From an uncultured delta proteobacterium (GTDB lineage: Bacteria; Desulfobacterota; Desulfomonilia; UBA1062): a DNA stretch of 64,000 nucleotides. Below the pieces are notes generated by a model. That model did not search any database and was not told the origin of the DNA. It worked only from the letters and a program-made list of their open reading frames with translations. The position numbers and the translations under genes are program-made. The DNA lies in NCBI GenBank assembly GCA_963847605.1, contig CAWKAM010000009.1, positions 12,028 to 76,027 of the forward strand, in the 5' to 3' direction. Below, in pieces: positions 15,848 through 64,000 of this stretch; within the stretch, counting starts at the first letter, position 1; every line of letters starts with the position of its first letter.

Positions 15848-15850
15848 ATC

Positions 15851-19742: not shown

Positions 19743-19790
19743 TACCGGTTTGTATTCAAACTGCATATCAAACCTCCCTTTTCTCCCCTG

Positions 19791-20459: not shown

Positions 20460-20478
20460 TGTTACGATCCTCCTTTTT

Positions 20479-20697: not shown

Positions 20698-20800
20698 AAG
20701 ACCTCCTGATTTACCAGGCGCTTTACAAACAGATAATAGGCAGCAGGGCCGGAGGCAATGGGTGACTTCTTGAATATTTAGATTACCAATGCCAAGATCT

Positions 20801-40710: not shown

Positions 40711-40786
<76 letters not shown>

Positions 40787-46194: not shown

Positions 46195-47229
46195 TCATAT
46201 CATGCGTTTACGCACCCTTTGCCAGATGCTTTCTATGGTATGCTTCGGGTTCATTGCTGCATCCGCAATGATCAGGAGTGCATGGAATGCGACCCGCCGG
46301 TATGAGAGTTTCTGCCCAACACTTTCCAGTCCCTTCCGGTGGAACTCCCAGAAGCTTCTCCCATATCCGAGCAGGGCACACCGTGCAAGAAATCGGTAAT
46401 AGCGCGCCTCGACTTCATGGACACGGCGGACAAGTTCCTCACGCTCGAGAAAATCCGGAGCAGCAAGATGGATAAACATGACCTCATAGAGCATAAGGGG
46501 GTCGTGCGGTTCCAATTTAGCCCACGTACCTTCGTTGTCGCGCCTGCTGAAGGTGAGGATTTGGGGGACGAACCCGAAGTCATGGTCTCGAAGTATTTCG
46601 AAACATATATCCGTGTCTTCAAAATAGAGCGTGGTAGTGGAGTAGAATGGATCGTGTGATCGAACGATGTCGCTCAGATACATCACGCCTGTAGGAGATC
46701 CGAAAAGCATAGTGCCGGACAGCTGGACCCTCGCAACATCACGACCCGGGTAAACCGGCCCCTGACCGAGAGACAGGCCGGCATGAGCAGGATAATTACC
46801 ATACAGACAGAAAGACGAAACCAGGCCCACATTATCGCGAGATTCTGCAACGGCTATCATCTCCTCAAGACAATGCGGATACATCAAATCGTCGGCTTGC
46901 ACTATCTTGCAATACTTGCTTTTCAGAGAAATGTAGCGGAGCGCTCGGTTGTAGTTTTCGACCTGGCTCAGGAACTCGGTTTCTCGGATTACACGGATTC
47001 TTGGATCCAATGCAGCATATTTTTCAGCAATGTCGAGCGATCCGTCCGTGCTGCAGTTGTCGGCAAGGATATACTCCCAGTTCGTATGCGTCTGTCCAAG
47101 CACGCTCAGTATGCACTCCTCCAGGTGATCAGCCGTATTGTAGAATGGGGTTACCACCGAGACAAGTATGTCTTTCGACATTGGATCTTTTTGGGGGGGA
47201 ACATAATATTTTGAATCCATTTCGCTCAC
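46195..47229 (-). CDS. Glycosyltransferase family 2
   Basis: '[25 protein letters not shown]...DNCSTDGS' GT-A signature. Confidence 0.85.
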
Positions 47230-47239: not shown

Positions 47240-48655
47240 TCATTGTTCGGAACCTCGGCATCCCAGATTTAATGCCAATTCATTACTGATGGCTGCGAAT
47301 TCCTGTTCCACCGCCTCGCGCTTGTCGATGCATCTGCTGCGAAGTGCGGAAACTATTCTGCCGTGCTCTGTCAGTATGCTGGACAAGGATTCCTGGGCTT
47401 GAAAAGAGGTGAAGGTTTCTAGATTCAGACAGAATCGCTCTTGCCCCATGTCTTCCATGTGGACCATCACCTTCCTGCGGTATGAGATAGCCAGCACAGG
47501 TACCCCGCTGATATGGCTCAATAGGACACCATGCAGACGGCTCGCAACCACGGCGTCGCAGGATCTCAGTAAGTTTGTTAGTTCCTGAAGCTTCAACAAG
47601 GGGAAAAGCTGGACGTGTCCCCCGTTAGAACCCGCGCTCACAAGTTGATCGTAGAGTAACTTCGCCAATTTAGTATCCCCGCCATCGGTGATGAATATCT
47701 TCAGGGAGTGGTTTGCTTTGAGAAGGGAAGCAGCGAAAACCCTTAACTCATGCCAGTATCGTTCGAAAACATCTCTATGAATCGTAGGCCAGCTGCCCTC
47801 GAGACCGAAAGAGATAGGGCTCAAGCCGATAGTGAGGTGTGATTGTGCCGGAGCTTCTGTAAACGGTGTATCGCCGTTCAGTGTCGACATTCCGAAGGCT
47901 AAATCGGGACAAGAGATAAGCTCGCGTTGAATGCCCAACCTGCGAAGAATTTCGAGGGACCCGGCATCACGCAGCGACACCCGGCGAGCCTGTACAAGTA
48001 TACGTCGCAAAAACCACCCGCTGAGTGAATGGTGGAGATCATCGACCCCGACACCAACAAAGAAAACAGGTACATGTGCGATACGAGCCAGGGTGATCCA
48101 CTTGAACATTGAATATGGATGGCCCCATGGGCCGCCATACTCGTCATCAAATTGACCACCTCCAGCGATAATCAATGCGTTCAGGGAGCGGACTACTCTG
48201 CGGGCTTGAAGCAAATGACGCGATTCAAGTGCAATCATTTGCATGCTATCCCGTAGACGCCTTGCTACTGGCAGAACCAAAGGTATGCGCCCGGCAGTCT
48301 TCTTGAGCACGGTCCTCAAGTCAAGGCGTGGGGATGCAACGCCAGTGGTGTGGGGTAAAGGCATAGTTTGCTCGGAAGGCTTCAACATCCATGTACTAAA
48401 ATAGTATGGCCGAGGAATGGCGGCAAGAGGAAAGCCCTCCAGGCCGTGAAGTTTTGAGGCATACTCGTAATCCAAGACAATCAAGAGAACTTCGGCCTTC
48501 GGGGATAGCCGGATCAAGTGAGTTCGCGCCGATTCAATGATAGCTGCATCTCCCAAGTTTGTGCCCCAATAGGGACTTATCAATCCTATGCGTGGGCTCT
48601 TTTCGGTTTGATTCGAAGGGATTTCCATGTTGTTTTGGGTGCATTTACCAAACAT
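47240..48655 (-). CDS. Polysaccharide pyruvyl transferase family protein
   Basis: '[16 protein letters not shown]' Gx-N-x-GD motif. 471 aa, larger than typical family members. Confidence 0.55.
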
Positions 48656-48719: not shown

Positions 48720-50300
48720 TTAGTAACTATAAGCAGCTCTTTTCAGTGTACTTATGGAAAGATACAGTACCGCATCGCTGTGGAATGGTGCGGCAAACGA
48801 CCGGGAGGCACCGCCCTCGATAGTATCGCCTGACTGTGTAATTCCTGATATGGGGTTGAGCCACTCTACATCGAGCTTCCCGGATGAATGAGAGAGGTCT
48901 ACGGTAACTTTGCCATCTTGAGGTGCATAAATCAGATATTCTTTCCCATTTTCGGCGAGACAGTATCCGGAAGAGGCCAGATCCGGCCGGGGCACCATAC
49001 CCACCAGATGAATCCTCTTGGCGAAGGTTAGCGTATACCCCATGTTCCTGCGCATGAGTTCCCATTCCGGGCTGGCTGGATCACAATAATATTCTGGAGG
49101 GTTATGAAGTACGTTCGCGTTATAAGGATCCATGAAAATCGGGTTCAGGCCCCTGAGGAAACTTTCCCATATCCACCGGTAGTCTCCGCCCATCCCCCAT
49201 AAATGGTCCGTGTCACTAATGATGATCTTTCGTCCGTCCGCCACGGGCGGATTGTCTTTATACCCGCCCTGAGAATTCGGGGATACCGCCTCAGCAGGAC
49301 TTTTAAAGAGGGCACTGTTCTCTCCTCCCGGCCATTGTGCGGTCATCCACACCGGGTGTCTCCTGCCCTTCTTCCCCTCGTAGGCATGAATGAAATTGAT
49401 CATGTGGTACTGCCACAGAGTTGAATCGCTGTGGCCTTCATTGGATATCTCCCACAATACATTATCCAGGTCATTCAATGTATCTATGACTTTTTTAACG
49501 TATTCTTCCTGCAGCTTTGTTATACGGGGCAAGTTCATGGTATGAATTTCTCGGCCGTCACCCTTCCCCAGAGGATCTCCATCGATTCCATTGATATTGT
49601 TTCTGGCATTAAACGGATGTCCTCTCCATGGGTTGTTTTCTTCGGTGAGCATTGCCCCTAAACGCACCTTTCGAAGCATCCTCCTAAGATACCATTTTAA
49701 CTTGCTGTCAGTATTTACCCCCTTGATCTCAATGCTGAAACCTTGAAACAGCATAATGGAAACATAAATGCCCTTCCCCTGTGCCGAGATCACCCGTGCA
49801 CGCAATCTGTCAAAAAATTTCTGATTGAACCTGGTAAGGTCGAATTTTGGTTTTCCATCAAGGGCTTCCCCCGGCCCGGTTCTCTCATAGGGCATAGGGC
49901 TGAACACAATCTTTTCCTTTGTGCCCTGGAACCACGCAGCATGTTCCCATACCCATAGACGGATGAAGTTGTGATTATGCTTCTTAAGAGAATCAAGGTA
50001 AGCTGCGTAATTGAAAGGAGGTGTATTTTCATCCCCTATCTCCTGGAAATTGTTCCACGTGTGCGACCCGGTCAGATAGACGGCTTTCCCTGTTCCGTCG
50101 GTAAAATATCTCGGGTTGGTAGGATTTACCGTAAGTGGTCCCATGGGTAAGACACCTCTTGTTTTGGTCAGGGTTGCCCGACTACCGGCCATCAGTTGCG
50201 TGCTATCTGCGGCCAATAGCACTAGCGCAATCAATAATATTAAGCTATAAGCCGACGGCTGCTTCACATCATTCACAATCTCAGTATCAATGCGAATCAA
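48720..50300 (-). CDS. Membrane-anchored or secreted glycoside-hydrolase-like protein (GH5-like/DUF4038-type)
   Basis: N-terminal TM/signal 'LILLIALVLLAA'. 'NPRYFTDGTGKAVYLTGSHTWNNFQ' resembles cellulase-like putative glycosidases. Family assignment is tentative. Confidence 0.45.
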   Translation of the reverse strand: MIRIDTEIVNDVKQPSAYSLILLIALVLLAADSTQLMAGSRATLTKTRGVLPMGPLTVNPTNPRYFTDGTGKAVYLTGSHTWNNFQEIGDENTPPFNYAAYLDSLKKHNHNFIRLWVWEHAAWFQGTKEKIVFSPMPYERTGPGEALDGKPKFDLTRFNQKFFDRLRARVISAQGKGIYVSIMLFQGFSIEIKGVNTDSKLKWYLRRMLRKVRLGAMLTEENNPWRGHPFNARNNINGIDGDPLGKGDGREIHTMNLPRITKLQEEYVKKVIDTLNDLDNVLWEISNEGHSDSTLWQYHMINFIHAYEGKKGRRHPVWMTAQWPGGENSALFKSPAEAVSPNSQGGYKDNPPVADGRKIIISDTDHLWGMGGDYRWIWESFLRGLNPIFMDPYNANVLHNPPEYYCDPASPEWELMRRNMGYTLTFAKRIHLVGMVPRPDLASSGYCLAENGKEYLIYAPQDGKVTVDLSHSSGKLDVEWLNPISGITQSGDTIEGGASRSFAAPFHSDAVLYLSISTLKRAAYSY

Positions 50301-50403: not shown

Positions 50404-51558
50404 TCAATCAGCCATTGATTGCATCCAGTGCGTAAGGACCCTCTCGCGCCCGCTGCCTTCCGCAGCAAGCGCCTTTGCAAGGTCCGCTTCGATGGCCACT
50501 TGCGCCTCTCGACCATGCAAATACAACTGCCAGAGCGGTGTTGCATGGAGAGTATTCATCTTACCCATGGCCTTGGCTAGGGAGAGACGGTCCACCATCT
50601 CATCGTACCGTGCGATCTCTCGCTGATACGTCTCGTACAGTTCTGTCCGGAGCACATGAGAGAGAGGTTCATAGTCGCTGTATTCACCCGGCTGATGACG
50701 TTCAATACCCGTGGGTGCAGGATCGAACAGACAGAAGAGCGATACGTACCCGTCGACAATGTGAACTTCGTGCTTATTGCGAAGGAATTGCTTGGCCTGG
50801 GTTTTCTCGTCGATGCGGCATTCCTCTTCGGAGCTCCCGGCGGCTTCGTTCAGATGATAGGTGGAGTCGCCATCGAGTGACAACCACGGGCCCCATAGCT
50901 GGTTCGTATACTGGTACGGGTGCTTCGCCATACGCACGCGGGCGGTCCCTTTCACGTCGTAGCATATGTTGAACTCGGTTCGGGAGTTGTATGACATCTT
51001 GAACACCGGCTCCCCGTCCTCGTTTCCGGGGAGACCGGCCACGTCGAACATTGTGGTGCGAAACCAGGAGACGGGATTCCCGGATCTAGATAGAAGAATC
51101 GGGTCATGATGCAGAAAGATACGGCGGCTCAAATACTGGGGGGTGAGGATCCACCGAAGTAACTGAGATCCCGAAGCACAGGCCGCAAGAAATGTTTCGT
51201 CGCGAAGCAGCAGCCTTTTGCCGCGGGTCTGTGAGGCAGTTGGACTCGATACGCGCAAGACTTCGGTCTCCGGTTCCGCTTCGAGGGCGGTCTCCAGCCC
51301 GGGCGGAAGATAGAGGTGCACGCCTGCCTCCAGGTGAAGCGGTTGTTTGCCGTCACCCGGAACGTATAGGTTCCCTCTTCCTCGAAGAACGCTGATGATG
51401 TGGCCGACGCTTGCTCCCGGTGTGAGGCGCCCGGCCTCGGAGAACCGGATACGATCGACGTCCAGCCCCTCGGGATGTATGTCGTGCTTCAGGATTTGAG
51501 CACGGGCAAAGGGCTCTCCTGATTCACGACGCCATTCGTTCTTGATGAGCTTTTGCAT
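50404..51558 (-). CDS. Hypothetical protein
   Basis: 384 aa, no motif recognised. Embedded in the polysaccharide locus. Confidence 0.4.
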   Translation of the reverse strand: MQKLIKNEWRRESGEPFARAQILKHDIHPEGLDVDRIRFSEAGRLTPGASVGHIISVLRGRGNLYVPGDGKQPLHLEAGVHLYLPPGLETALEAEPETEVLRVSSPTASQTRGKRLLLRDETFLAACASGSQLLRWILTPQYLSRRIFLHHDPILLSRSGNPVSWFRTTMFDVAGLPGNEDGEPVFKMSYNSRTEFNICYDVKGTARVRMAKHPYQYTNQLWGPWLSLDGDSTYHLNEAAGSSEEECRIDEKTQAKQFLRNKHEVHIVDGYVSLFCLFDPAPTGIERHQPGEYSDYEPLSHVLRTELYETYQREIARYDEMVDRLSLAKAMGKMNTLHATPLWQLYLHGREAQVAIEADLAKALAAEGSGRERVLTHWMQSMAD

Positions 51559-51860: not shown

Positions 51861-53444
51861 TCATTTAAGCGCGCTCAACTTTTTTCTATCTATCTTTCCG
51901 GATGAAGTTGTAGGCAGGGAGTCGCGGAATTCAATAATCTCCGGGATCATGTACTTCGGCAGTTGTCTGGAACAATACTTCAGAATGTCTTCCTTTTCGA
52001 TCTTACCTGGTGTCAATGGAACTATGACCGCCGAGATTCTATTCCCTATTAGCTCGTCCGGGATCGGGATGATAACGGCATTCTTAATATCCGGATGATT
52101 GCACAGGACAGTTTCAATTTCTCCGATCTCAATCCTGTACCCCCGGCTTTTTATCATATGATCTTTCCGGCCAAGGAAAACATAGTTTCCATCAGTATCC
52201 AGGCGGACCAAATCGCCGGTTCTGTAAACTATTTCATTCAAGTCAGGCCTGAGGGGGTTTTTCACAAAGCACTCTTGACTTTTTTCAATATCGTCCCAAT
52301 ATCCTGCTGCAACCGAAGCAGCCCTCACATATAATTCTCCTTTTTCTCCAGGCTTTTTAACCTTTTTTCCCTCTTCGTCCAGGGCAAAAATCTCGAAATT
52401 CGGGAATGATCTACCTATTGGAAGTACTGCTGCGTCATCCGATGGAATTTGTTCAACCCGATAATACATTGAAGAATTCGCTTCCGTTTGTCCGTATATA
52501 TTGTAAAATTTCCCTCCGGGGACTGCTTTCTGGACTCGCCGCAGATATTTTATGGGGAATACCTCACCTGCGAACAGAATCAATCGTAGAGAAGAAAAAT
52601 CATACTTATCCAGATTCGTAAAGTTCGCCAAAAGAGTGAGCGCCGACGGCACCGAATTCCATACCGAGATTTTTTTCTTCTCTATGTATTCAGCCAGCTG
52701 AGACGGAAAGATGGACGTGCTCTCTGGGATGATGACAACAGAAGCCCCTGCCTTGAATGCAACGAAGATGTCAAACACGGACATGTCAAAGTGCAGGGGG
52801 CAGATGTTGGAAACCCTGTCATTCGTTTCTATTCCAAAAAAGTCATGCACCGAATTCACAAATGTCAAAGAGTTGCGATGCGATATCATGACCCCTTTGG
52901 GATTGCCTGTTGACCCGGAAGTAAAGAGGATATACGCTAAATCCGAATCTATCGTGTTCATGCATGGAGTCTCACTCCTTGCAGCCTCCCTCATCTGATG
53001 CCAGTCAATCAATTTCACGGATCCGAGTGACCCGGAATCTGAATCCAAGCCATTCATGACAAGAACACTTTCCAAAGGCGATGATCCGGGAAACGCCCGC
53101 TCTACATTTGTCAGCTTTTCTTGAGAAGTTAACAGCAACTTAATTCCACATCTGTTGACAATATAACTGAGACGGCTGAGCGGGCACATGGGATCTATGG
53201 GAACATACGTGGCCCCTGCTTTCAGGATCCCCAAAGCCCCGGCTATTGAATTTATGCTCCTGTTCATGTGTATCCCGACCCGTGCCCCTCTTTCTATGCC
53301 GATTTCTGAGAGACAATGAGCCAGTTTGTCGGTTTCCTTCTCCAATTCGGCATAGGTTATGGACTTGTCTTTAAAAGCCAATGCCTCCTTTTCCGGATAT
53401 TTCGCCGCACTCTCAGACAATAATTGGTGCAGTAGGTAGACCAT
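51861..53444 (-). CDS. AMP-dependent ligase, DltA-like carrier-protein ligase / adenylation enzyme
   Basis: 'YILFTSGSTGNPKGVMISHRN', 'FDMSVFDIF' and C-terminal 'SSGKIDRKKL' closely parallel DltA landmarks (from memory). Confidence 0.8.
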   Translation of the reverse strand: MVYLLHQLLSESAAKYPEKEALAFKDKSITYAELEKETDKLAHCLSEIGIERGARVGIHMNRSINSIAGALGILKAGATYVPIDPMCPLSRLSYIVNRCGIKLLLTSQEKLTNVERAFPGSSPLESVLVMNGLDSDSGSLGSVKLIDWHQMREAARSETPCMNTIDSDLAYILFTSGSTGNPKGVMISHRNSLTFVNSVHDFFGIETNDRVSNICPLHFDMSVFDIFVAFKAGASVVIIPESTSIFPSQLAEYIEKKKISVWNSVPSALTLLANFTNLDKYDFSSLRLILFAGEVFPIKYLRRVQKAVPGGKFYNIYGQTEANSSMYYRVEQIPSDDAAVLPIGRSFPNFEIFALDEEGKKVKKPGEKGELYVRAASVAAGYWDDIEKSQECFVKNPLRPDLNEIVYRTGDLVRLDTDGNYVFLGRKDHMIKSRGYRIEIGEIETVLCNHPDIKNAVIIPIPDELIGNRISAVIVPLTPGKIEKEDILKYCSRQLPKYMIPEIIEFRDSLPTTSSGKIDRKKLSALK

Positions 53445-53694: not shown

Positions 53695-56600
53695 TTATTG
53701 GGCCGGCTGTAAGGTGGCATACAAGGACCAATGAACCGTGGCGCTTGTGGGCGATGTGGAGAAGGTGCCGGGCATATCCGCGTAGGTGTAGCTGTAAAAT
53801 CTGGCCGATCCTGTGAGCGCATCCCTGAAACCCAGGCTGTTGCTTGATGGGAGATAGGCCAGCCAGTATGTACCCGCCGGCAGCGACACTTGTGAAATTA
53901 CATTCGCAGTGTTCCATCCGCTTACCGGTGTAAATGAGGCTGTCCGGGCTTTGAGAGTTCCAGGGCCACCGTTGGGTCCGGTGGCGTCATAGATACCCAG
54001 CTCCAGGCTGCCAGCCGCGGTCGTGACGTAGAAACTCATGCTCACTACAGTGCCGGTTTGCCCGAGGCTCGCCTGCTGGGCAATAAGCCCATTGCCATTC
54101 CCATTATCGTTGGTGCTCAGGATGCTGGTTTCTCCAATGGTAAAGGAACTGGCTGCCGTGACGGTCACGCTGGCCGTTCCGCTCACACCACCGCTCGCGG
54201 CGGTAACCGTGTACGGCCCACCCGCCGTGCTGCCTGCGGTGAAAAGGCCACTGCTCGTGATCGTTCCACCACCACTCACCGTCCAGCTGAAGCTGGGCTG
54301 CGGCACCATGGCGTTACCCGACTGATCATTCGCCGTCGCGGTGAACTGCTGTGTTCCATTCACCGCTACACTGGCCGATGACGGTGTTACGCTGATGCTG
54401 GTTAGGATCGAGCCCGTCCCGGCGAAGCTCGCCGCGATCGTATGGTTGCTGCTGACACTGCTGAAGGTATAGGTACCCACCGCTCCAACCGATGCCCCGT
54501 CAACGGTAACGGCGCTGATGGCATATCCGCTGCTGGCCGTGATGGTGAAGGTCTTGCTTGACCCGCTACTCACCGAGACGCTCCCCGAGGGGGAGATAGA
54601 CCCGCCCGTGCCTGCAGTGGCGGTAATGGTATAGGTCTGGGCAGCAACAAAGCTCGCCGCGATCGTATGGTTGCTCCTGACACTGCTGAAGGTATAGGTA
54701 CCCACCGCTCCCACCGATGCCCCGTCAACGGTAACGGCGCTGATGGCATATCCGCTGCTGGCCGTGATGGTGAAGGTCTTGCTTGACCCGCTACTCACCG
54801 AGACGCTCCCCGAGGGGGAGATAGACCCGCCCGTGCCTGCAGTGGCGGTAATGGTATAGGTCTGGGCAGCAACGAAGCTCGCCGCGATCGTATGGTTGCT
54901 CCTGACACTGCTGAAGGTATAGGTACTCACAGCTCCCACCGATGTCCCATCCACGGTAACTGAGCTGATAGTATATCCGCTCTTCGCAGTGATGGTGAAG
55001 GTCTTGCTTGACCCCCCACTCACCGAGACGCTTCCCGAGGGAGAAATGGTGCCGCCTGTGCCTGCGGTGGCGGTGATGGTGTAGGTCTGGACAGCGAAGC
55101 TTGCCTTGATCGTATGTTTGGCTGTCACGTTACTGAAGGTATAGGACCCCACCTTACCCACCGATTTCCCATCCACGGTAACGGAGCTGATGGCATATCC
55201 GCTGTTCGGTGTGATGGTGAAGGTCTGATTTGACCCTGAATTCACCGAGACGCTCCCCGAGGGGGAGATGGACCCGCCCGTGCCTGCGGTGGCGGTGATG
55301 GTGTAGGTCGTGGTAGCAACGAAATTCGCAGCGATACTATGGTTGCTGGTTACGTTTGTGAAGGTATAGGAACTCACCGCTCCTACCGATGTCCCATCCA
55401 CGAGAACTGAGCTGATGGCATATCCGCTGTTCGATGTGATGGTGAAGGTCTGGTTTGATCCTCCACTCACCGATACGCTTCCCATGGGGGAGATGGAACC
55501 GCCTGAGCCTGCGGTTGCAGTAATAATAATTGACCCATGATCAGGAAACAGGCTCGTAAATGTATATGTCTGTGGCTGAACATTCGCTGCGGTTTGAACA
55601 CTGCCATTAACGATTGTGGCAAATGAGACATCAAAATCCATCGTGTTTGGCCGGACTACAGTGGTCATTATTGTCGGGGCTACAATATCGGCAACTTCCT
55701 CCAGAAGATACCATGACTCCAAAGAATCCACAACTTTATCGCCGGCACTATAAAGACTGATCAGTCCATTATTCAACGTGTTGTAACGCGTGATGGTATC
55801 ACCCGATGAAGGGGGTGGGCTTATCTCAATAAAGTGATTCGTGGCTATGATTTGGTCGTAGTTGGGATTAGTATACGCGGCCCAGCGGATTAAAGCCCCC
55901 AAGATAGGAGAATTTTCAATGTAATAAACAGGATCGCTGGACCCTTGGTAGGGACTGCCGATCAGGATAATAGTCGGCGTGTAACTATATACCGAATTTA
56001 CAATAGACAGCGGTTGAGTTAAGTAACTGTCATATGTAGTGTTCTCAAGAATATAGCGGAGAGTTTCAGTTATTGGATGGAATGGTCCATTGCTGGTTGC
56101 ATTGTTGCCATTGCCTGAATTCACCATCACGACGATGCCGTCTTCGTTCATGCCCGATGTAACACCAAACCAGCCGGGCCAGCCAAAGGAAACAAGCTTT
56201 GGCATGCCGGTCGGCTCGTAGGTGATCAGCATCTGGTCTTTGAGAAGATTTCCTTGACTATCATAGGGAAAGTCATAATCTCTTGCTACAATCGTATCTC
56301 CGTTTCCAGTCGAGTTTCCCCAAACGCCGAAAGAGGAGCAGCTGAACCAATATTCAACAAAGAGGTTGAGGCACTCGATGTCCAGAGCACCGATATTTCT
56401 CCCCAGACTCGTAACATAGAGATTTTTGCCGCTGGCATTCATGCCATCCACCATGCCGCTTATTTCGTCCAGATATTGAGGGAAAAAGGTATGAACGGTG
56501 GGGATCAGGGTAAGACGATTGTTATAATCCGAAACATTGCCGTTGGCTATCACACCGATCAACCAGGTATCAATCAGGTCGCGGATCTTATCAGCCATCA

Positions 56601-56796
56601 AGTAGCCATGGGCATAACCCATCTCATAATATGAACCCCAGAGGTTGAGAACATTCTGATTGCCGACTTTCTCGAAACTGCCATTGATCGACGTTTGAGC
56701 TAAAGATTCATCTATAAAGCCATTCCCAAAAACAAGAAAACAAGAAAATAACAATAAAAGAAATGGCTTCAACACTCTCCTATGAAAAATTATCAT
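53695..56796 (-). CDS. Large secreted multidomain protein: Ntn-hydrolase (C45/choloylglycine-hydrolase-like) domain + 6 tandem 75-aa repeats + Big_2-like domain
   Basis: GGGAGG RBS and signal peptide 'MIIFHRRVLKPFLLLLFSCFLVFG'. 'YEMGYAHGY' and 'CSSFGVWG...ARDYDFP' suggest an Ntn-hydrolase Cys nucleophile. 'SISVTPSSASVAVNGTQQFTATANDQSGN' is Big_2-like. Confidence 0.6.
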   Translation of the reverse strand: MIIFHRRVLKPFLLLLFSCFLVFGNGFIDESLAQTSINGSFEKVGNQNVLNLWGSYYEMGYAHGYLMADKIRDLIDTWLIGVIANGNVSDYNNRLTLIPTVHTFFPQYLDEISGMVDGMNASGKNLYVTSLGRNIGALDIECLNLFVEYWFSCSSFGVWGNSTGNGDTIVARDYDFPYDSQGNLLKDQMLITYEPTGMPKLVSFGWPGWFGVTSGMNEDGIVVMVNSGNGNNATSNGPFHPITETLRYILENTTYDSYLTQPLSIVNSVYSYTPTIILIGSPYQGSSDPVYYIENSPILGALIRWAAYTNPNYDQIIATNHFIEISPPPSSGDTITRYNTLNNGLISLYSAGDKVVDSLESWYLLEEVADIVAPTIMTTVVRPNTMDFDVSFATIVNGSVQTAANVQPQTYTFTSLFPDHGSIIITATAGSGGSISPMGSVSVSGGSNQTFTITSNSGYAISSVLVDGTSVGAVSSYTFTNVTSNHSIAANFVATTTYTITATAGTGGSISPSGSVSVNSGSNQTFTITPNSGYAISSVTVDGKSVGKVGSYTFSNVTAKHTIKASFAVQTYTITATAGTGGTISPSGSVSVSGGSSKTFTITAKSGYTISSVTVDGTSVGAVSTYTFSSVRSNHTIAASFVAAQTYTITATAGTGGSISPSGSVSVSSGSSKTFTITASSGYAISAVTVDGASVGAVGTYTFSSVRSNHTIAASFVAAQTYTITATAGTGGSISPSGSVSVSSGSSKTFTITASSGYAISAVTVDGASVGAVGTYTFSSVSSNHTIAASFAGTGSILTSISVTPSSASVAVNGTQQFTATANDQSGNAMVPQPSFSWTVSGGGTITSSGLFTAGSTAGGPYTVTAASGGVSGTASVTVTAASSFTIGETSILSTNDNGNGNGLIAQQASLGQTGTVVSMSFYVTTAAGSLELGIYDATGPNGGPGTLKARTASFTPVSGWNTANVISQVSLPAGTYWLAYLPSSNSLGFRDALTGSARFYSYTYADMPGTFSTSPTSATVHWSLYATLQPAQ

Positions 56797-57213
56797 GGCA
56801 GGTCCTCCCTTTCCCGTAAGGAACTTCAAAGAGATCCTTGTGATCCAAATTCATAATAATACCTTGTCTCCTGTAAAACAAGCCCCTCACAAGTGCCTGA
56901 ACGAATAATGTGCGTTTATCATTTATTATAATCTACCTCTTTATATTTTATTATAAAATATATCTTTTGTCAATATTTATTTTACTATTCTTAAATCAAA
57001 ACCCTTCATAAAAGAATCTAAAATATTGAAAAGATACAATGAGAACAGTAGCCGTATTACTGATATGCACCATAATATAACGCAATGGAGGTGCCAAGGG
57101 CCGTAATTGTCCAACATAATGATTATACTTATAAATAAATCTTAACTTCGATTGCCGATTATTGGGTAAGTGAAAAGAAATGCCCATTTTCCGTAAGGGA
57201 TTCCCAATATTTA

Positions 57214-58359
57214 TTAAAGCCCCAAGTACCGGGCGATGATATTCCTCTGTATCTCAGAGGTCCCGGAATAGAGAGTACTTCCAATGGAATCTCGTAAATC
57301 GCGTTCCAATTCATATTCAGTGGTATAACCGTAACCCCCGTGAATCTGAATGGCATCAAGGCAAGACTTTATCCATGATTCACTCAGATAAAGCTTTGTG
57401 ATGGCAGCCTCCATGGTCGCCTTGCCATGGGTCTTCTTCATCCAGGCCAGTTTGTATAACATCAGTCTGGCCGTTTCCATTCTCACCTTCATGTCAACGA
57501 TCTTATTGGCAACAGACTGATACTTACCGATTGATTTACCAAATTGCTTCCGTTCCTTGGAATATTTTATACATCTCTCCAGTTGCCTTTCCATGCCACC
57601 CAGTAAACTGGCCAAAATGCAACTCCTCTCCCATTCTATTGAGTCATCGAATATTGCCGCACCATTGCCTTCTTTTCCAAGACGATTCTCTGCGGGAACT
57701 TTGCAATCTTCAAGAATCAATTCGGCAAAAGGAGCCGTTCGTAAACCCATTTTTCCTATGTCCTTGCTTACACAAAAACCAGGATAATCTCTTTCAATAA
57801 TGAATGCAGTCACACCCATAAATCCCTTCCGCTTATCTACAGTAGCAAATACTACAAATACATCGGCCAACGGCGCCATGGTGCAGAACGTTTTTGTCCC
57901 ATTTAAGATATAATAATTACCGTCCAACCTCGCTGTTGTTCGAAGGCTGTAGGCATCGGAACCCGAGTCCGGCTCGGTAATGCTGTCAGCTCCGATCAAT
58001 TCGCCACTGCAAAGTCTAGGTAAATACCTGTTTTTCTGTGCTTCGGAACCAAACTTCAATATCGGCATTTGAACGGACCACATCTGGCCGTTGATTGCGA
58101 ATATCAACCCACTGTCTTTGCATCCATATCCCAATCCTTCCATGAGGAGCAGGGTGCTCATGATATCAGCGTTGTTTCCTCCGTACTGTTCCGGAAACGC
58201 AGAGCCCTGTATTCCGAAATTTGCACATTTTTTCCAGAGTTCACGGGGGAAGACAGCATCTCTGTCCCTTTCAATGACCCCATCGTTGAGCGCCTTCTGA
58301 GCAAAACGGATAGCCCTTTCCTTGTATTCTAACTGCTCTTTGCTAAATTCAAAATCCAT
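57214..58359 (-). CDS. Acyl-CoA/acyl-ACP dehydrogenase family protein
   Basis: 381 aa. ACAD fold with C-terminal 'IYSGTSEIQRNIIAR' signature. Confidence 0.85.
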   Translation of the reverse strand: MDFEFSKEQLEYKERAIRFAQKALNDGVIERDRDAVFPRELWKKCANFGIQGSAFPEQYGGNNADIMSTLLLMEGLGYGCKDSGLIFAINGQMWSVQMPILKFGSEAQKNRYLPRLCSGELIGADSITEPDSGSDAYSLRTTARLDGNYYILNGTKTFCTMAPLADVFVVFATVDKRKGFMGVTAFIIERDYPGFCVSKDIGKMGLRTAPFAELILEDCKVPAENRLGKEGNGAAIFDDSIEWERSCILASLLGGMERQLERCIKYSKERKQFGKSIGKYQSVANKIVDMKVRMETARLMLYKLAWMKKTHGKATMEAAITKLYLSESWIKSCLDAIQIHGGYGYTTEYELERDLRDSIGSTLYSGTSEIQRNIIARYLGL

Positions 58360-58605: not shown

Positions 58606-58857
58606 CTACTTATTCCCCATTTTCTGTTCGACAAACTTGACCATGTTATTAAGAGTTTGAAAGTTCTCTGGGACGATTTCATCGTCAGTGACAGCTATAC
58701 TAAAGGTTTCCTCCATAAAAAGTATCAACTTCATGATCCCTAAAGAATCAATAATTCCCTTCTCAAGAAGATCTTCATCAGGTGTCAGGGATTTTTTATC
58801 AAGATTGACAGCAATCTCATTAATCAAAAATCTTTCAAGATCTTTTATAATGCTCAT
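58606..58857 (-). CDS. Acyl/aminoacyl carrier protein
   Basis: 83 aa. 'GIIDSLGIMKL' phosphopantetheine-attachment Ser. Confidence 0.85.
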   Translation of the reverse strand: MSIIKDLERFLINEIAVNLDKKSLTPDEDLLEKGIIDSLGIMKLILFMEETFSIAVTDDEIVPENFQTLNNMVKFVEQKMGNK

Positions 58858-59027: not shown

Positions 59028-59921
59028 CTACACACCTTCAGGAAAGATTCCAAAAGCTTCAACATACTGACTTGGACGCCACGACGGTCCTCTTACCATG
59101 AGAATATCTATACAATAGAGTTTAAAGCCCAACTCTTGAAGTGCTTTAACAAGCATAAAATCTCTAGCCATGACACGCGTTCGACAAGATCGCTTTTTGA
59201 AAGTTTCTAGTGCCTGTCGAAACAAAAACTCAGCTTCCTCTTCTCCTTCGGCAAGCAAGGGACCGAGCTGAACCCCTCTCGGTCCGGGAAGACATGCCAG
59301 ATAACCTTTGATATGCGAGTGACTTCGATAAACAAAAATCTTGCCCCACCGGGAAAAATATCTGAGGTCTGTTCGTCGGTCAAATTTACTTCGCGGAAAG
59401 TCATATGCACAAAGCTCATCGAGATCATTTGCGCTTAATTCGTTTACACTGCTGCAAAGATCCGGATTCCGTTCAACTCCCTTATCCAGGATTAAATCCA
59501 TTAGAGTTGCCACTGGCATATACTTGAATGAATATAGGAAAGAAAAGGTTTCAGGATTGTAGGCCTCCTGGATACATCTCGTACTTTGCAACCCTTCCAC
59601 CCTCTTGAAACAAGCATTCATGAGTTCCCGTCCAACACCACCGCCTTGAGAATAAGGATCAATGGCAAGAGGTCCATGACCTCCATTTTCACCCCTTGGG
59701 TTCAGACAAATTATTCCTACGACCCGATCCCCCACCTCAGCAACCAAACGTACACACGGTCCATGGTGGAGCATTGCCCAGGCCCAGGACTTTCCTTCAT
59801 TGACACTCTGTATTTGCGGGGCATAACCATATTTCAATGCATTTTTATTAAACGCTTCATGAAAAATTTCTCCTACCCGGTCTATATCCGCCTTAGTCAT
59901 ATCACGTATTTGAGGCCTCAT
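59028..59921 (-). CDS. GNAT-family N-acyltransferase
   Basis: AAGGAG RBS before the internal Met. 'VGIICLNP...GPLAIDPYSQGGGVGRELM' acyl-CoA-binding GNAT core. Confidence 0.65.
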   Translation of the reverse strand: MRPQIRDMTKADIDRVGEIFHEAFNKNALKYGYAPQIQSVNEGKSWAWAMLHHGPCVRLVAEVGDRVVGIICLNPRGENGGHGPLAIDPYSQGGGVGRELMNACFKRVEGLQSTRCIQEAYNPETFSFLYSFKYMPVATLMDLILDKGVERNPDLCSSVNELSANDLDELCAYDFPRSKFDRRTDLRYFSRWGKIFVYRSHSHIKGYLACLPGPRGVQLGPLLAEGEEEAEFLFRQALETFKKRSCRTRVMARDFMLVKALQELGFKLYCIDILMVRGPSWRPSQYVEAFGIFPEGV

Positions 59922-60137
59922 CGTAATCTCCTTAACGTTACATAACAATTAACCTCAATCTGCTTGGAAAAACCTTTAAGACCCTCAATCTTTAAAACTT
60001 TGAACACACGCCCCATAAATATATTGCTTTGATCGATCACAAACAGAAAACTCCTTTCTGTTTAGACACCTATCAGTTTAGTCCGAAAGTCATTCTTTGA
60101 ATAATTTGATGAGTAACGTATTATCTTTGTTCGTTTT

Positions 60138-61172
60138 TTAGACTTTATATCCACGCAGGAAACTATTTGTGTTAAGATAAGTCATAGCGCAGAATTCTAT
60201 GTTTCTGAAGCCAGCTTCTTGGAACCAACGTGTAGTTTCCACCTGAGAGTGGTTCTTTCCTTCAGCTGTAACACAAAGCATCATAAGATCCAGGAAGATC
60301 GGCCATCTTCCGCCAAGACGATCGTCCCGTAGATATTGGGCCTGAATAACCAGTGACCCGCCATAATTAATGGAGTTATATAAGCGCTTAATGAGCATGC
60401 GGCTTGCATTCTCCCCTAGTCCATGCAGTGTGTTAGAGACAAGTATCATATCATACGAACCGGGAATATCATCTTTCAGAGCATCCAATGGCAGATATTG
60501 AATTTTGTTCTTGAGGGAGTATCTTGTCTGAACCTCTTTTGCATTTTCCAGAACCTCAGAGAGGTCCAGAAGATAGAGCTCTAAGTCTGGGTTATACATA
60601 CCTAAATGAAAGGCATATGTTCCAGGACCACAACCAAGATCAAGTAACGACTTACATCTATCCGTGCTAAGGAATTTGGCCAATTCCTTTCCCCGCAGTG
60701 AAGCATAGTTGTGCATACCCAGTGTGAATTCCCGCGTACTTTCTTTGTCACCCCTGACATGCTTTGACGGATCAATGGTTGGTCCAGATTTTAATATTGC
60801 TTCATCAAGTTTTGATAGTGCTGCATAAAAGATTTCCAAACTGCTGATCCAGTTGCCGATATAATGTTCACCGGCAGAAGGTGACAATACTGTGCGACAC
60901 ATTGGTGCTATGCTGAAATTGATGCCATCTGCGGATTCAAGTAGTTTCAAAACAACCCCTGCATTCAATAATCGCGAAAGTGTCTCCGGCCGTGTATGCA
61001 ACTCCTCGGCAAGCTCATGCAAAGTTTTACTACCATTGTCTATACGTTCAAAAACTTTCAGCTTTAACAAAGCAAACAAAATACTGGACTGATAAAATCC
61101 CTCTGCGATAGAGAGTACTGCAATTTGGTTTCTTTTAACTGTCAGGTCCGATATTGGTTCGTCTTGAGACAT
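60138..61172 (-). CDS. SAM-dependent O-methyltransferase (dimerisation domain + class I MTase)
   Basis: 'LLDLGCGPGTYAF' motif I. N-terminal winged-helix-like region. Confidence 0.75.
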   Translation of the reverse strand: MSQDEPISDLTVKRNQIAVLSIAEGFYQSSILFALLKLKVFERIDNGSKTLHELAEELHTRPETLSRLLNAGVVLKLLESADGINFSIAPMCRTVLSPSAGEHYIGNWISSLEIFYAALSKLDEAILKSGPTIDPSKHVRGDKESTREFTLGMHNYASLRGKELAKFLSTDRCKSLLDLGCGPGTYAFHLGMYNPDLELYLLDLSEVLENAKEVQTRYSLKNKIQYLPLDALKDDIPGSYDMILVSNTLHGLGENASRMLIKRLYNSINYGGSLVIQAQYLRDDRLGGRWPIFLDLMMLCVTAEGKNHSQVETTRWFQEAGFRNIEFCAMTYLNTNSFLRGYKV

Positions 61173-61186
61173 AGTACCCCCACTAA

Positions 61187-62188
61187 TCATTCAGTTAAGT
61201 TTTCCCATCGCTTGTTTCGCGTATTCCAGCGTCGGCCACTCCCAATCTCATATATGCTCTGTGTCGGGTTCTCTCCGATTGCGACTTCCAGTGTATCGAT
61301 CAGTTTATCCATCACATCAACATCATTGCCCGCCTCATTACCAATGTTGCGAATTGGAACTCCCCAGTCCAGCACTATAGTTCCATCACTCTCCAGAAGA
61401 GAAACGCAGCTAATGATTGGGCATTTAGCTAAACGAGCTAACTGTGCAGCCCCTGTTGAAAACACTCGGTTTTTATGTCCCGCAAAGGGTCTTTCGTAAG
61501 ATCCTGTCGGAGTTTTATGCCAGAGCGCGTCAACGGCCATGTAAACGACATTTTCTCGTTCGTAGAGCCGCTTATAAAGTGTCCTGGCAGTACGCAGGTC
61601 AGATCCCATAAATACGATTTCAATATCCCTTTTCCAGCAAGAAGATAAGGCCTGCAGCAATGCCCCATATTGAATACGAATACGCAGATCATAAAGGCTC
61701 CGAATTCGCTTCCGAGGTTCACTACCAACATTGATAGGGTGACCATAAGTGACGCCGGGAGAAAATATACTCAGACCAGGTTCTTTAGGAAAATGCGCAC
61801 TGGCTATGATGTACGAATCACCAGACTCCCTCAGACTGTTTATACCATCAACATTTTTCTCAACGATTCGCCAGTTGGACGGATCTTCGCGCCGGTAAAT
61901 CAAACGTTTAAGCTTGACGAAATCGCTCAGTGGCCTGGCCAGCCAGCCCCAGGCGAGAAAGAACGATTCAAGGCGGCCCTTTCCGAAAGCGCTTCGCATC
62001 TGCCAATATGCATGAAAGCCCGGTACTGGTAAAACCGCCAGTGATAGTGCAAGGGCATCGGCGATTCCCAGGGCCCATTTTCTCGGCAGTGCATACGCAG
62101 CCGGTGCAAGGATGAATTGCATACTCACAATGCGTATGAACTGTTCGACGTGGTAGCTTATCCGGATTATCTGTTCTCTCATATTCAT
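61187..62188 (-). CDS. Putative LpxL/HtrB-like membrane acyltransferase
   Basis: N-terminal hydrophobic anchor. 'YIIASAHFPKEPGL' resembles the lipid A late acyltransferase H-F/G-x-WE region. Weak call. Confidence 0.35.
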   Translation of the reverse strand: MNMREQIIRISYHVEQFIRIVSMQFILAPAAYALPRKWALGIADALALSLAVLPVPGFHAYWQMRSAFGKGRLESFFLAWGWLARPLSDFVKLKRLIYRREDPSNWRIVEKNVDGINSLRESGDSYIIASAHFPKEPGLSIFSPGVTYGHPINVGSEPRKRIRSLYDLRIRIQYGALLQALSSCWKRDIEIVFMGSDLRTARTLYKRLYERENVVYMAVDALWHKTPTGSYERPFAGHKNRVFSTGAAQLARLAKCPIISCVSLLESDGTIVLDWGVPIRNIGNEAGNDVDVMDKLIDTLEVAIGENPTQSIYEIGSGRRWNTRNKRWENLTE

Positions 62189-62341
62189 GTTGCCTTACAA
62201 TTATGTTTAACACATACAGCAGTCATTCATGGACTTTCTGAGTCTGCTCCAGTCTTGAAAACTTTGCACCCTTTCTTCTCACACAGCATCCACATAAAGG
62301 ATACATGATATTCCCAGCCCCGATAAGTTACCCATATCGAT

Positions 62342-63532
62342 TCACTCAATGACCGCCTTGGGATACAGATTAACAACACCCTGCACATCCCTCTCCGATC
62401 TTATCTGCAGTGTCGCGGCAGGATTCCGCGTATCATACATTTTCTGAATGTCATATCGGTAGATATGCGCACCGACATGGTATGTCCCGGGCACAAGGTG
62501 AAGATTCAACTCAAACGTCACCTTCTTTTTTTCGCCGGGCTCCAAAGAAAATGTTGTGTTATTCAGCCGCTGGGTTGAGGTGTCGAATACATGGTAATTG
62601 TCGTCATTTTTCATGAGCACCGTTACCGATAGATTTTTGCAATTCACGTTTCCCGTGACTTCGACCTCTAAGAAAACTTTCTCTCCGGTCTCAAACAAGA
62701 GTTCTTTATTTCTTTCACCCTTGAGAATCACATTGGAAATATATGCCTCTTTCCTCTCATCTGCTTCACTGACCCATTCTCTGGGATTCATATAATTGTG
62801 GACGACATCAACAGACGGTCCATCACTGATCTTTTTACCGTGATCAAGCAAGATGCATCGATGGCACAGGTCCGTTACAGCCCGCAGATTATGGGACACG
62901 AACAACAACGTCGTACCGCTGCTTAGAACCGATTTCATTTTCTCTATACATTTTTTTTGAAAAGAGTAATCACCTACACTGAGCACCTCATCCACAACGA
63001 GTATCTCCGGGTCGACATGAGCTGCAACAGAAAACCCAAGCCGTGCGTACATTCCGGATGAATAACGTTTCACCGGGGTGTCTATGAAATCAGCCAGACC
63101 GGAGAAATCCACAATCTCATCAAATTTCTTTATGATCTGTTCCTTTTTCATACCGAGTATTGTTCCATTGAGAAAAATGTTTTCACGTCCGGTCAGATCC
63201 GGGTGGAAACCCGCGCCTACTTCGATGAGCGCTGATAACGTACCGTTTACTGTTATATTGCCTTTTGTAGGTTTCATGATACCGGTCAACAGTTTGAGCA
63301 TTGTGCTCTTTCCTGCGCCGTTGGGCCCGATGATACCTAAGGCTTCTCCTTTGTTGACTTGGAATGAGATATCATATAATGCCCAGAATTCATTTTCTCC
63401 CAGAGAAGATTCTTTCCGGCCCCTGAAAAGACTGCCGAACATGGCGGGTATGAGATCCCGCAGGGAGTCGTACAATTGACCTTTTCTGAATTTCTTATAC
63501 ACACGATCCATTTCGAATGCAAAACTGGACAT
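62342..63532 (-). CDS. wzt: Polysaccharide/O-antigen ABC exporter ATP-binding protein with C-terminal glycan-binding domain
   Basis: Walker A 'GPNGAGKST', signature 'YSSGMYARL', Walker B 'ILVVDEVLSVGD'. Carries a ~150 aa C-terminal beta-rich extension. Confidence 0.8.
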   Translation of the reverse strand: MSSFAFEMDRVYKKFRKGQLYDSLRDLIPAMFGSLFRGRKESSLGENEFWALYDISFQVNKGEALGIIGPNGAGKSTMLKLLTGIMKPTKGNITVNGTLSALIEVGAGFHPDLTGRENIFLNGTILGMKKEQIIKKFDEIVDFSGLADFIDTPVKRYSSGMYARLGFSVAAHVDPEILVVDEVLSVGDYSFQKKCIEKMKSVLSSGTTLLFVSHNLRAVTDLCHRCILLDHGKKISDGPSVDVVHNYMNPREWVSEADERKEAYISNVILKGERNKELLFETGEKVFLEVEVTGNVNCKNLSVTVLMKNDDNYHVFDTSTQRLNNTTFSLEPGEKKKVTFELNLHLVPGTYHVGAHIYRYDIQKMYDTRNPAATLQIRSERDVQGVVNLYPKAVIE

Positions 63533-63541
63533 AACGGCACC

Positions 63542-64000
63542 TTATAGATTTTCAGCGAATTTTGGCTCGAGATTCTTAAAGAACCTCAAAGAAAAATAAA
63601 CCCCGAGTACAGATATCGTCGTACTATAACAAACCCAAATAATGTTGGGGGAAGAGTGAAGCACGATGCTGGAACTCAATCCCTCGAGGATAGGGGCAAC
63701 AGGGTTCAGGAAGAGAACCCATTTATACTTTCCTGCTAAGTCGGCCTCATAGAATACCGGGGTAAAGAAGATTGCAAAACCGGTTATGACCTCTACAAGA
63801 TATTTCACGTCACGTAAAAAGAGGTTGGCAGCGGAAAGTAATAGTGCCAATGCAATCAACAAAAGAACAAGGTCCAGTATTAACGGCAAAACCCACAACA
63901 GGTATATGCTCAACCCTGTCCCTGCAATTGCCAGTAAAATAATCAGGACACATGAGGCGATAATAAAATCAAACAACTGGGACAATACTGCCGATATCGG
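63542..64000 (-). CDS. wzm: ABC-2 polysaccharide exporter permease, 5' end beyond the window
   Basis: Polytopic protein. Lies upstream of wzt in the same orientation. The listed Met is probably internal. Confidence 0.55.
   Translation of the reverse strand, partial: PISAVLSQLFDFIIASCVLIILLAIAGTGLSIYLLWVLPLILDLVLLLIALALLLSAANLFLRDVKYLVEVITGFAIFFTPVFYEADLAGKYKWVLFLNPVAPILEGLSSSIVLHSSPNIIWVCYSTTISVLGVYFSLRFFKNLEPKFAENL

Follow-up and report, generated by a model that had tools for sequence, protein, structure and literature searches.

One end of an ABC-transporter-dependent glycan locus occupies the region from ~43.3 kb to beyond 64 kb, the end of the window (the whole 64,000-nucleotide stretch analysed here), and its features are given in Table 1. 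The initial annotation of the last part of the window described wzm, wzt, an acyltransferase and a methyltransferase, and all four genes were recovered on the minus strand where it had placed them. It also set the acyltransferase in the slot directly after wzt, which is correct (the gap between the two is 153 nt), but as that reading ended at 60138 it missed the carrier-protein, adenylation and dehydrogenase genes of the cassette to which the acyltransferase belongs. A complete wzm (262 aa, ABC2_membrane) lies 9 nt upstream of wzt on contig L001, which is 99.96% identical to the window.

Table 1 Features of the glycan locus in the window, with profile scores and, where given, family cut-offs.
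Feature	Position	Strand	Details
wzm, ABC-2 permease	63542..64000, cut by window end	-	C-terminal 147 aa only; ABC2_membrane 24.9 bits on fragment
wzt, ABC ATPase, 396 aa	62342..63532	-	ABC_tran 76.1 bits; Wzt_C (Pfam PF14524) residues 259-389, 66.9 bits (cut-off 30.4)
LpxL/PatA-fold acyltransferase, 333 aa, first cassette gene	61187..62188	-	
COMT-class SAM methyltransferase, optional accessory	60138..61190	-	Dimerisation residues 21-102, 48.5 bits (cut-off 25.6); Methyltransf_2 residues 147-329, 71.5 bits (cut-off 22.3)
Two-domain GNAT acetyltransferase, accessory	59028..59948	-	Acetyltransf_1 and Acetyltransf_18
Carrier protein (PCP/ACP), 83 aa, DSL phosphopantetheine site	58606..58857	-	PP-binding 30.3 bits (cut-off 20.8)
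Flavin acyl-carrier-protein dehydrogenase (ACAD), prolyl-carrier-protein dehydrogenase-like	57214..58359	-	PDB 4irn, 5zw0; PigA model
Secreted 1044-aa C45-family acyltransferase/hydrolase with InlB B-repeats	53695..56829	-	C45_proenzyme 121.5 bits (cut-off 85); Flg_new_2 matched five times
Stand-alone amino-acid adenylation domain (A-domain), code DMFNLAISS(K)	51861..53444	-	AA-adenyl-dom (TIGR01733) 381.5 bits (cut-off 317.4)
Orphan 384-aa protein, EctC (ectoine synthase)-like cupin core	50404..51558	-	Adjoins adenylation gene
DUF6298/apiosidase-like glycoside-hydrolase-like protein	48720..50300	-	Conserved in L004 and L014
Polysaccharide pyruvyl transferase (CsaB-like)	47240..48655	-	PS_pyruv_trans 112.5 bits
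GT2 glycosyltransferase	46195..47229	-	
GT4 glycosyltransferase	44937..46178	-	
UDP-glucose/GDP-mannose dehydrogenase, locus edge	43324..44661	+	

Methyl, phosphomethyl and Kdo groups are the caps recognised so far in Wzt-dependent export. The window Wzt comprises a nucleotide-binding domain (residues 1–250) and a carbohydrate-binding domain (residues 251–396, nt 62345–62782), and its best PDB match is the full-length A. aeolicus Wzt (8dku, 7e-67). The C-terminal binding domain proposed in the initial annotation is a genuine member of the Wzt_C family, above the Pfam cut-off and matching the solved A. aeolicus domain. Its alignment to characterised domains, suggested there as a check, worked for A. 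aeolicus (8dky/6o14, E 4e-4) but not for E. coli O9a, whose binding domain was not matched at E ≤ 10, and the R. terrigena domain 5hno reached E 0.19 in the PDB sequence search. In the established paradigm a domain of this type reads a cap at the non-reducing end, E. coli O8 and A. aeolicus being established cases in which the cap is a methylated sugar (PMC9445017), and because Wzt has a Wzt_C domain the window glycan would be expected to carry some terminal cap. The window resembles E. coli O9a/O8 WbdD–Wzt and A. aeolicus Wzt in its Wzm/Wzt pair, Wzt_C domain and modifying-enzyme gene after wzt (PMC9445017; PMC3482155). It differs from O9a/O8, however, in having no WbdD-like kinase, methyltransferase or coiled-coil protein, its own methyltransferase being of the COMT class and optional, and from A. 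aeolicus in the mapped residues of the methyl-sugar cap pocket, of which one in six is identical.

The acyltransferase belongs by fold to the LpxL/LpxM/PatA (LPLAT) superfamily, scoring 18.4 bits with the PF03279 family HMM, under the cut-off of 22.3, although a PF03279 match is precomputed for some of its homologues. Both H132 and D220 are invariant, and a check for the HX4(D/E) motif found the residue five positions after H132 to be neither acidic nor conserved. The PatA catalytic dyad uses a distal acid; as no conserved acidic residue stands five positions after the catalytic His, a PatA-style dyad of H132 with D220 is a putative assignment. The description of the enzyme as a membrane protein in the initial annotation is based on a single hydrophobic segment (residues 38–58, Kyte–Doolittle mean 1.77).

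Among NCBIfam models AmcB, OlsHI ACP and DltC were nearest to the carrier protein, and both DltA and DltC models were among the matches of the cassette. The top PDB match of the dehydrogenase was the prolyl-ACP dehydrogenase AnaB (4irn, 1.6e-142, 478 bits), the L-prolyl-PCP dehydrogenase 5zw0 scored 330 bits and generic butyryl-CoA dehydrogenases ~290 bits, below AnaB, whilst the NCBIfam equivalog cut-offs were not reached for PigA (458 vs. 500 bits) or RedW (398 vs. 650 bits). The adenylation domain has LgrA module 2 and PltF among its PDB matches and keeps Asp235 and Lys517. Its specificity code, extracted at the GrsA-PheA positions, follows the pattern DMFN[LA]A[IM][ST]S in seven of seven loci with an EctC-like neighbour (the window and six related loci), whereas L013, which has a halogenase and no EctC-like gene, encodes DLFYLALVC. 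No verifiable substrate assignment matches the window code.

The EctC-like gene is always found next to the adenylation gene. Its 384-aa product was assigned to no Pfam or NCBIfam family in profile searches and has 76 cluster representatives among 1.84 billion. It may contain an EctC-like core, to which the link is weak: the PDB structure of EctC (5ono) was matched at E 0.019 and Pfam Ectoine_synth at E 0.06, below cut-off, in four of four family members scanned, and hhalign to a hand-entered EctC sequence gave Prob 75% and E 2.4e-5. In the alignment with this sequence, the iron ligands (Glu/Tyr/His) of EctC, an ectoine synthase family which makes a compatible solute (PMC6344544), correspond to the invariant E195, Y234 and H263.

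The acyltransferase family is linked to carrier-protein chemistry in eight of the ten lineages examined, which suggests a carrier-protein acyl donor. The acyltransferase occurs with PCP, ACAD, A-domain and EctC-like gene in the window, L002, L004, L006 and L014. L012 has PCP and ACAD, plus a shortened AMP-binding-like gene and LuxC/LuxE/Fe-ADH genes; L013 has ACAD, A-domain, a KSIII gene and a halogenase close to Mpy16 and PltA (~1e-162), which are pyrrolyl-carrier-protein halogenases; the P0026 locus has PPTase, ACAD and a 1995-aa NRPS. Only an 85-aa carrier-like gene adjoins the acyltransferase in L008, and no carrier-protein genes lie near the distant acyltransferase homologue in L018. The cassette moves as a unit: L006, a locus without wzt, becomes homologous to the window from a point 7 nt ahead of the start of the acyltransferase gene. 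It lies directly after wzt in the window, L002, L004 and L014 and without an adjacent wzt in L006 and L013, and in at least four lineages it is flanked by glycan genes at both ends; L006 carries an NDP-sugar module, L013 PMT_2 and GT2 genes. L016 and L017 have the A-domain, the EctC-like gene and the methyltransferase, but no PCP, ACAD or acyltransferase was found within 8 kb, so part of the module may have an independent role.

Going by its genes, we give an even chance to the reading that the conserved cassette charges the carrier protein with a proline-like cyclic amino acid, which is then transferred to the exported glycan. The EctC-like cupin would make, or help to make, this amino acid, and the stand-alone adenylation domain, which like the carrier protein is clear in its family, would activate it and load the carrier. 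By homology, the AnaB/PigA-like flavoenzyme may then oxidise the ring whilst it is tethered, and the acyltransferase, of which the fold and the gene linkage are established, is predicted to take the acyl group off the carrier and pass it to the lipid-linked glycan, on the cytoplasmic side of the membrane and ahead of export by Wzm/Wzt. The methyltransferase and GNAT would be optional tailoring enzymes in the window organism. The acceptor could be a lipid instead of the glycan, and the acyl group has about one chance in three of being the terminal cap; a decoration inside the chain or at its reducing end is just as possible. A tentative proposal, with odds clearly against it, is that the oxidised cyclic amino-acyl group sits at the non-reducing end as the cap, ending chain growth and being recognised by the Wzt C-terminal domain. 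If true, ABC-dependent glycan export would have its first acyl cap built by NRPS-type carrier-protein chemistry, the amino acid in it would be a new one made by an EctC-like cyclase, and the rules by which ABC transporters certify a glycan for export would widen.

Carrier-protein-dependent amino-acylation of the envelope is performed by Dlt on teichoic acids and by AlmEFG on lipid A. In uncultured Desulfobacterota and Nitrospirota-type bacteria the cassette would add an exported polysaccharide to these targets; it pairs an LpxL-fold enzyme with NRPS-like parts and gives a first functional context to the orphan 51-member acyltransferase clade and to the EctC-like orphan family. Dlt (D-alanylation of teichoic acids) likewise uses an adenylation enzyme (DltA) and a carrier protein (DltC) to decorate an envelope polymer; the window cassette, however, has no MBOAT (DltB) or DltD, and its transfer is predicted on the cytoplasmic side, via an LPLAT-fold enzyme and before ABC export. 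Pyrrolyl-type acyl transfer to a sugar hydroxyl is known for noviose in clorobiocin and coumermycin. The prolyl-carrier-protein oxidation systems AnaC/AnaD/AnaB, PltF/PltL/PltE and PigI/PigG/PigA combine, as the window does, a stand-alone A-domain with a carrier protein and a flavoenzyme of the acyl-CoA-dehydrogenase type, and the related locus L013 even has a halogenase of the PltA/Mpy16 type. The window differs in an A-domain code unlike that of L013, in its adjacent EctC-like gene and LpxL/PatA-like transferase, and in its context, a polysaccharide locus rather than an antibiotic cluster. The V. cholerae AlmEFG system acts on an envelope glycolipid, putting glycine on lipid A at the inner membrane, and like the cassette joins a stand-alone adenylation enzyme of the DltA type to a small carrier protein and an LpxL-superfamily transferase (PMC4278540), a likeness in the three parts. 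The flavin dehydrogenase and EctC-like cupin are extra in the window, its substrate would not be glycine because the A-domain code differs from that of AlmEFG, and the polysaccharide is the likely acceptor because the cassette lies inside a Wzm/Wzt glycan locus.

The interpretation in the initial annotation, a methyl and/or acyl cap as the export signal, is partly borne out. In its methyl form the O-methyltransferase would methylate the terminal sugar like WbdD or WbeT and so create a methyl export signal for Wzt. The Wzt_C domain, the precedent of methylated sugars (PMC9445017) and a gene position just two genes from wzt agree with this, yet we consider it very improbable. The enzyme has a COMT-type architecture, Dimerisation and Methyltransf_2 both scoring above their cut-offs, and its PDB relatives are all small-molecule methyltransferases (DsyB, the best at 1e-21, ASMT, SibL, MmcR and DnrK), a finding the initial annotation had itself named as refuting its reading. 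We rejected a WbdD-type chain terminator, as the two domains fill the 344–350 aa and leave no room for a kinase or coiled coil; no kinase domain or C-terminal extension was detected, and no WbdD was among the PDB matches. The gene is also missing from L014, L002 and L004, despite Wzt binding domains 91%, 76% and 72% identical to that of the window and the same six pocket-equivalent residues, and by this comparison appears dispensable for a near-identical binding domain; in L016 and L017 it adjoins the adenylation and EctC-like genes, with no wzt or acyltransferase within 8 kb. The poor conservation of the A. aeolicus pocket is a further point against a methyl cap. We take the methyltransferase to be an optional extra and not a WbdD-type terminator of the sugar chain; most likely it methylates the amino-acid-derived moiety. 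Its reported 4-nt overlap (ATGA) with the acyltransferase gene exists in the longest open-reading frame but is abolished by the likely start at the second ATG (Met7, 61172), which is preceded by a GGGGG Shine–Dalgarno-like run and gives 344 aa, the length of nearly all homologues. With Met7 as the start, the genes are probably separated by a 14-nt spacer; their linkage is tight whichever start holds.

Terminal pyruvylation by CsaB is a recognition mark on the B. anthracis cell-wall polysaccharide, and with this precedent the cap read by Wzt might be a pyruvate ketal that the CsaB-like enzyme adds to the terminal sugar, leaving the amino-acyl group as an internal or reducing-end decoration unrelated to export, a reading we hold to be unlikely. 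A PS_pyruv_trans gene is present in every Wzt-linked locus long enough (window, L002, L004 and L015, the last without the cassette), but the L015 enzyme is only 31.5% identical to that of the window. The window enzyme scored 91 bits with the CsaB model, below cut-off. Pyruvyl transferases usually modify repeat units, and we know of no Wzt binding domain shown to take a pyruvyl cap. An AlmEFG-like modification, with lipid A or another membrane lipid as the acceptor for the acyltransferase and an incidental adjacency to wzt, is improbable: membrane glycolipids are the substrates of LpxM/PatA-fold enzymes, AlmG offers a precedent (PMC4278540), and two loci carry the cassette away from wzt, but both still have glycan genes, and the flanking glycan genes and recurrent position directly after wzt argue for a glycan acceptor. 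It is highly doubtful that the cassette makes a free small molecule, either a natural product or an osmolyte-like cyclic amino-acid derivative, with an acyltransferase unrelated to glycans. The halogenase and KSIII genes of L013, the NRPS genes of the P0026 locus and the compatible solute made by the EctC-like enzyme family (PMC6344544) would fit such a product; however, no thioesterase, condensation domain or PKS occurs within the window, the fold of the transferase is that of membrane-glycolipid acyltransferases, and the cassette is consistently inside Wzm/Wzt glycan loci.

The GNAT gene is present in the window, L004 and L006 only, with a weak WecD-like match in NCBIfam and no informative PDB match. 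The C45-family gene is an insertion confined to the window and L006, with a doubtful role in the system; the gene has a GC content of 0.57–0.60 against ~0.43 around it, and contains 225-nt tandem repeats.

All four genes of the initial annotation are present on the minus strand, as determined by ORF listing and Pfam scans (see table), and a 99.96% identical public contig of 4.1 kb (L001), through which the sequence past position 64000 is known, supplies the complete Wzm (262 aa) and places a fold-type-IV aminotransferase and a PIG-L fragment upstream of wzm. The 4-nt overlap between the acyltransferase and the methyltransferase holds for the longest methyltransferase ORF, but not from a start at Met7, which has a GGGGG run upstream and gives 344 aa, the usual homologue length. 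Promoter and terminator scans scored at shuffle level. Downstream of the methyltransferase, Pfam and NCBIfam scans detected first a GNAT, for which a PDB search gave no informative match, then an 83-aa carrier protein (PCP), together with an ACAD-family flavin dehydrogenase, a stand-alone amino-acid adenylation domain (A-domain; TIGR01733, 381 bits vs. 317) and an adjacent 384-aa protein to which these scans assigned no family. The top PDB match of the ACAD-family protein is the prolyl-ACP dehydrogenase AnaB (1.6e-142), it matches 5zw0 (deposited as an L-prolyl-PCP dehydrogenase) at 330 bits, and it scored 458 bits against the NCBIfam PigA model, short of the cut-off of 500. Further downstream are an apiosidase-like protein, a CsaB-like pyruvyl transferase, GT2 and GT4. 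The gene content is thus that of a genuine ABC-dependent glycan locus which carries an embedded carrier-protein cassette.

Features of the window and gene orders of the compared loci (acylT, acyltransferase; OMT, COMT-class methyltransferase as in the window; C45, secreted acyltransferase/hydrolase insertion; positions in the numbering of each sequence)
Feature or locus	Source	Position	Strand	Evidence or gene order
wzm	window	63542 to beyond 64000 (cut by window end)	minus	ORF listing, Pfam
wzt	window	62342–63532	minus	ABC_tran 76 bits; Wzt_C 66.9 bits vs. cut-off 30.4
Acyltransferase, 333 aa	window	61187–62188	minus	ORF listing, Pfam
Methyltransferase, 350 aa (longest ORF)	window	60138–61190	minus	Methyltransf_2 and Dimerisation domains (Pfam)
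C45/InlB-repeat gene, 1044 aa	window	53695–56829	minus	225-nt tandem repeats at 54423–55524
EctC-like orphan, 384 aa	window	50404–51558	minus	always adjoins adenylation gene
tRNA-Phe	window	40711–40786	plus	
L002 (= L010)	Thermodesulfovibrionales MAG			wzm-wzt-acylT ... PCP-ACAD-EctC-like-A-domain-pyruvylT
L004 (= L011)	'delta proteobacterium' MAG			wzm-wzt-acylT-GNAT-PCP-ACAD-A-domain-EctC-like
L014	metagenome	2333–9189 (sugar module)		wzm-wzt-acylT-GT2-PCP-(MTS-type methyltransferase)-ACAD-A-domain-EctC-like
L006	metagenome			acylT-OMT-GNAT-PCP-ACAD-C45-A-domain-EctC-like; without wzt
L012	Syntrophobacteraceae MAG	12115–18792		wzm-wzt-GT2-GT4-acylT ... LuxE/LuxC/Fe-ADH-PCP ... ACAD
L013	Planctomycetaceae MAG	8247–20934		acylT (36% identical), KSIII-like gene, PMT_2, halogenase, ACAD, A-domain
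P0026 locus	metagenome			FemAB-like-acylT-PPTase-ACAD-1995-aa NRPS-GT2
L015	related Wzm/Wzt locus	11226–12221		FemAB-like (Acetyltransf_6) gene in post-wzt slot
L016	compared locus	5077–9035		A-domain, EctC-like, methyltransferase
L017	compared locus	5150–9044		A-domain, EctC-like, methyltransferase

The acyltransferase following wzt is real, and is nearly an orphan at the sequence level: PF03279 fell below the Pfam cut-off, no NCBIfam match and no PDB match by sequence was found, only 51 homologues were present among 5.8 billion clusters, and an exact-match search with the window protein (P0001) returned nothing. Its neighbours across the compared loci place it with carrier-protein genes, together with which it moves as one block, usually docked directly after wzt. 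Two lineages are without the cassette, L008, where an adjacent 85-aa carrier-like gene is the sole carrier trace, and L018, with none. Homology between the metagenomic locus L006 (9163–11005) and the window (62195) sets in 7 nt before the acyltransferase gene begins, beside an IS200-like Y1 transposase, and the acyltransferases are only 72% identical, whilst the genes from methyltransferase to A-domain share 84–98% identity; these unequal identities and the edge at the transposase indicate a mosaic and mobile cassette.

The carried group is predicted to derive from an amino acid. Read at the positions defined for GrsA-PheA, with internally consistent numbering on a PheA anchor fragment, the A-domain has the code DMFNLAISS(K), and the pattern DMFN[LA]A[IM][ST]S recurs in 7/7 loci with the 384-aa neighbour. 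The A-domain of the Planctomycetaceae locus L013, which has a halogenase and is without the 384-aa neighbour, reads DLFYLALVC, which is probably the code of free-standing proline A-domains. A literature search for A-domain codes and pyrrole-2-carboxyl groups on polysaccharides returned nothing relevant. Only 76 cluster representatives, out of 1.84 billion, belong to the family of the 384-aa protein; a profile of 19 members matches ectoine synthase structures in the PDB (E 0.019), a profile of four close homologues found no PDB match, and cupin and Ectoine_synth gave sub-threshold Pfam matches in 4/4 scanned members. Alignment with hhalign to an EctC sequence gave a probability of 75% (E 2.4e-5), and the residues that bind iron in EctC, Glu57, Tyr84 and His92 (PMC6344544), align to E195, Y234 and H263, invariant in the family, the EctC-like part being central. 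A single-sequence AlphaFold2 model reached a pLDDT of only 33.5. Read most simply, a cyclodehydratase would produce a cyclic amino acid that resembles proline and is more polar; the A-domain would next activate it, and the AnaB-like enzyme would oxidise it while on the carrier. The logic resembles that of AlmEFG, in which an LpxL-superfamily aminoacyl transferase acts on lipid A with an A-domain and carrier protein (PMC4278540), and the cassette may work like the Dlt system; on-carrier oxidation, as in the AnaB, PltE and PigA cassettes, would be an extra step relative to both.

The C-terminal binding domain proposed for Wzt is borne out. Full-length Aquifex aeolicus Wzt is the top PDB match of the window protein (8dku/7k2t, 7e-67), and in PDB sequence searches with the C-terminal 146 aa alone, the characterised binding domain from A. 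aeolicus (8dky/6o14) was matched at E 4e-4 and that from R. terrigena marginally (E 0.19), whereas the E. coli O9a domain gave no match; by sequence, membership of the Wzt_C family is therefore sound. The A. aeolicus 3-O-methyl-sugar pocket comprises Ile299, Leu300, Asn313, Thr346, Ala348 and His350 (PMC9445017), for which a low-identity, and so approximate, alignment gives V305, L306, S319, G354, H356 and Y358 in the window, only one of six identical, suggesting that the ligand is likely to differ from that sugar. All six window residues are common to L014, L002 and L004, whose binding domains are 91%, 76% and 72% identical to the window's. Across Wzt homologues, binding-domain divergence did not separate cleanly by cassette presence: the homologues P0060 and P0061, whose contigs have the same lengths as contigs with acyltransferase homologues and are therefore probably the same ones, drop in identity as much as cassette-less L015.

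A methyl and/or acyl cap had been proposed as the export signal, an interpretation that finds partial support; its methyl part is disfavoured. The methyltransferase has a COMT-class architecture and small-molecule PDB relatives, and is missing from L002, L004 and L014 despite their similar binding domains, whilst L016 and L017 link it to an A-domain and an EctC-like gene, with acyltransferase, PCP, ACAD and wzt not found within 8 kb of it; taken together, these points speak for a role in tailoring the amino-acid-derived moiety and give no argument for a terminal sugar as its substrate. That trio suggests a function which may be independent, and the methyltransferase family is about tenfold larger than that of the acyltransferase (496 matches, 65–92% identity). 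The locus, with its dispensable, COMT-class methyltransferase, is not a WbdD-type terminator system. The acyl group may be the cap. Alternatively, the CsaB-like pyruvyl transferase, which is conserved, could make the cap instead of an acyl group. L015 is without the cassette and has a FemAB-like transferase directly after wzt, which hints that acyl or aminoacyl transferases can replace one another in this slot, and such slot content mildly favours a cap-related role.

Among the related loci, the P0026 locus also has a member of the FemAB-like (Acetyltransf_6) family, directly before its acyltransferase. For the halogenase of L013, the matches are Mpy16 and PltA, which halogenate pyrrolyl carrier proteins (~1e-162; 6e-164), and the product there may be a halogenated pyrrolyl glycoconjugate. 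In L012, the LuxE, LuxC, Fe-ADH and carrier protein set alongside the acyltransferase calls to mind the tetronate genes of V. cholerae O1, and a GT2-methyltransferase fusion looks more chain-terminator-like than the window's methyltransferase. A conserved sugar module lies before wzm (off-window in the present case), and in L014 encodes an NDP-sugar epimerase/dehydratase, a TylCIII-like C-methyltransferase, RmlC, DUF4910, a nucleotidyltransferase, a PIG-L deacetylase and an aminotransferase, the last being of fold-type IV except in L006 and L015, where it is PRK06209-type; the likely product of the module is an unusual 6-deoxy sugar, either branched or amino. NCBIfam assignments to RmlC and PRK06209-type led us to reject FdtA-like and EctB identities for the off-window sugar isomerase and the class-III aminotransferase, respectively.

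Only the window and L006 have, between the genes for the dehydrogenase and the A-domain, an inserted gene for a secreted protein that combines five InlB B-repeats with an autoproteolytic acyltransferase/hydrolase domain of the C45 type, at a GC content of 0.57–0.60 against ~0.43 in its surroundings. Just outside the glycan locus, the tRNA-Phe gene is followed by ~2.5 kb of ORF-poor sequence (40.8–43.3 kb), and a variable locus may have its boundary or a hotspot for integration here.
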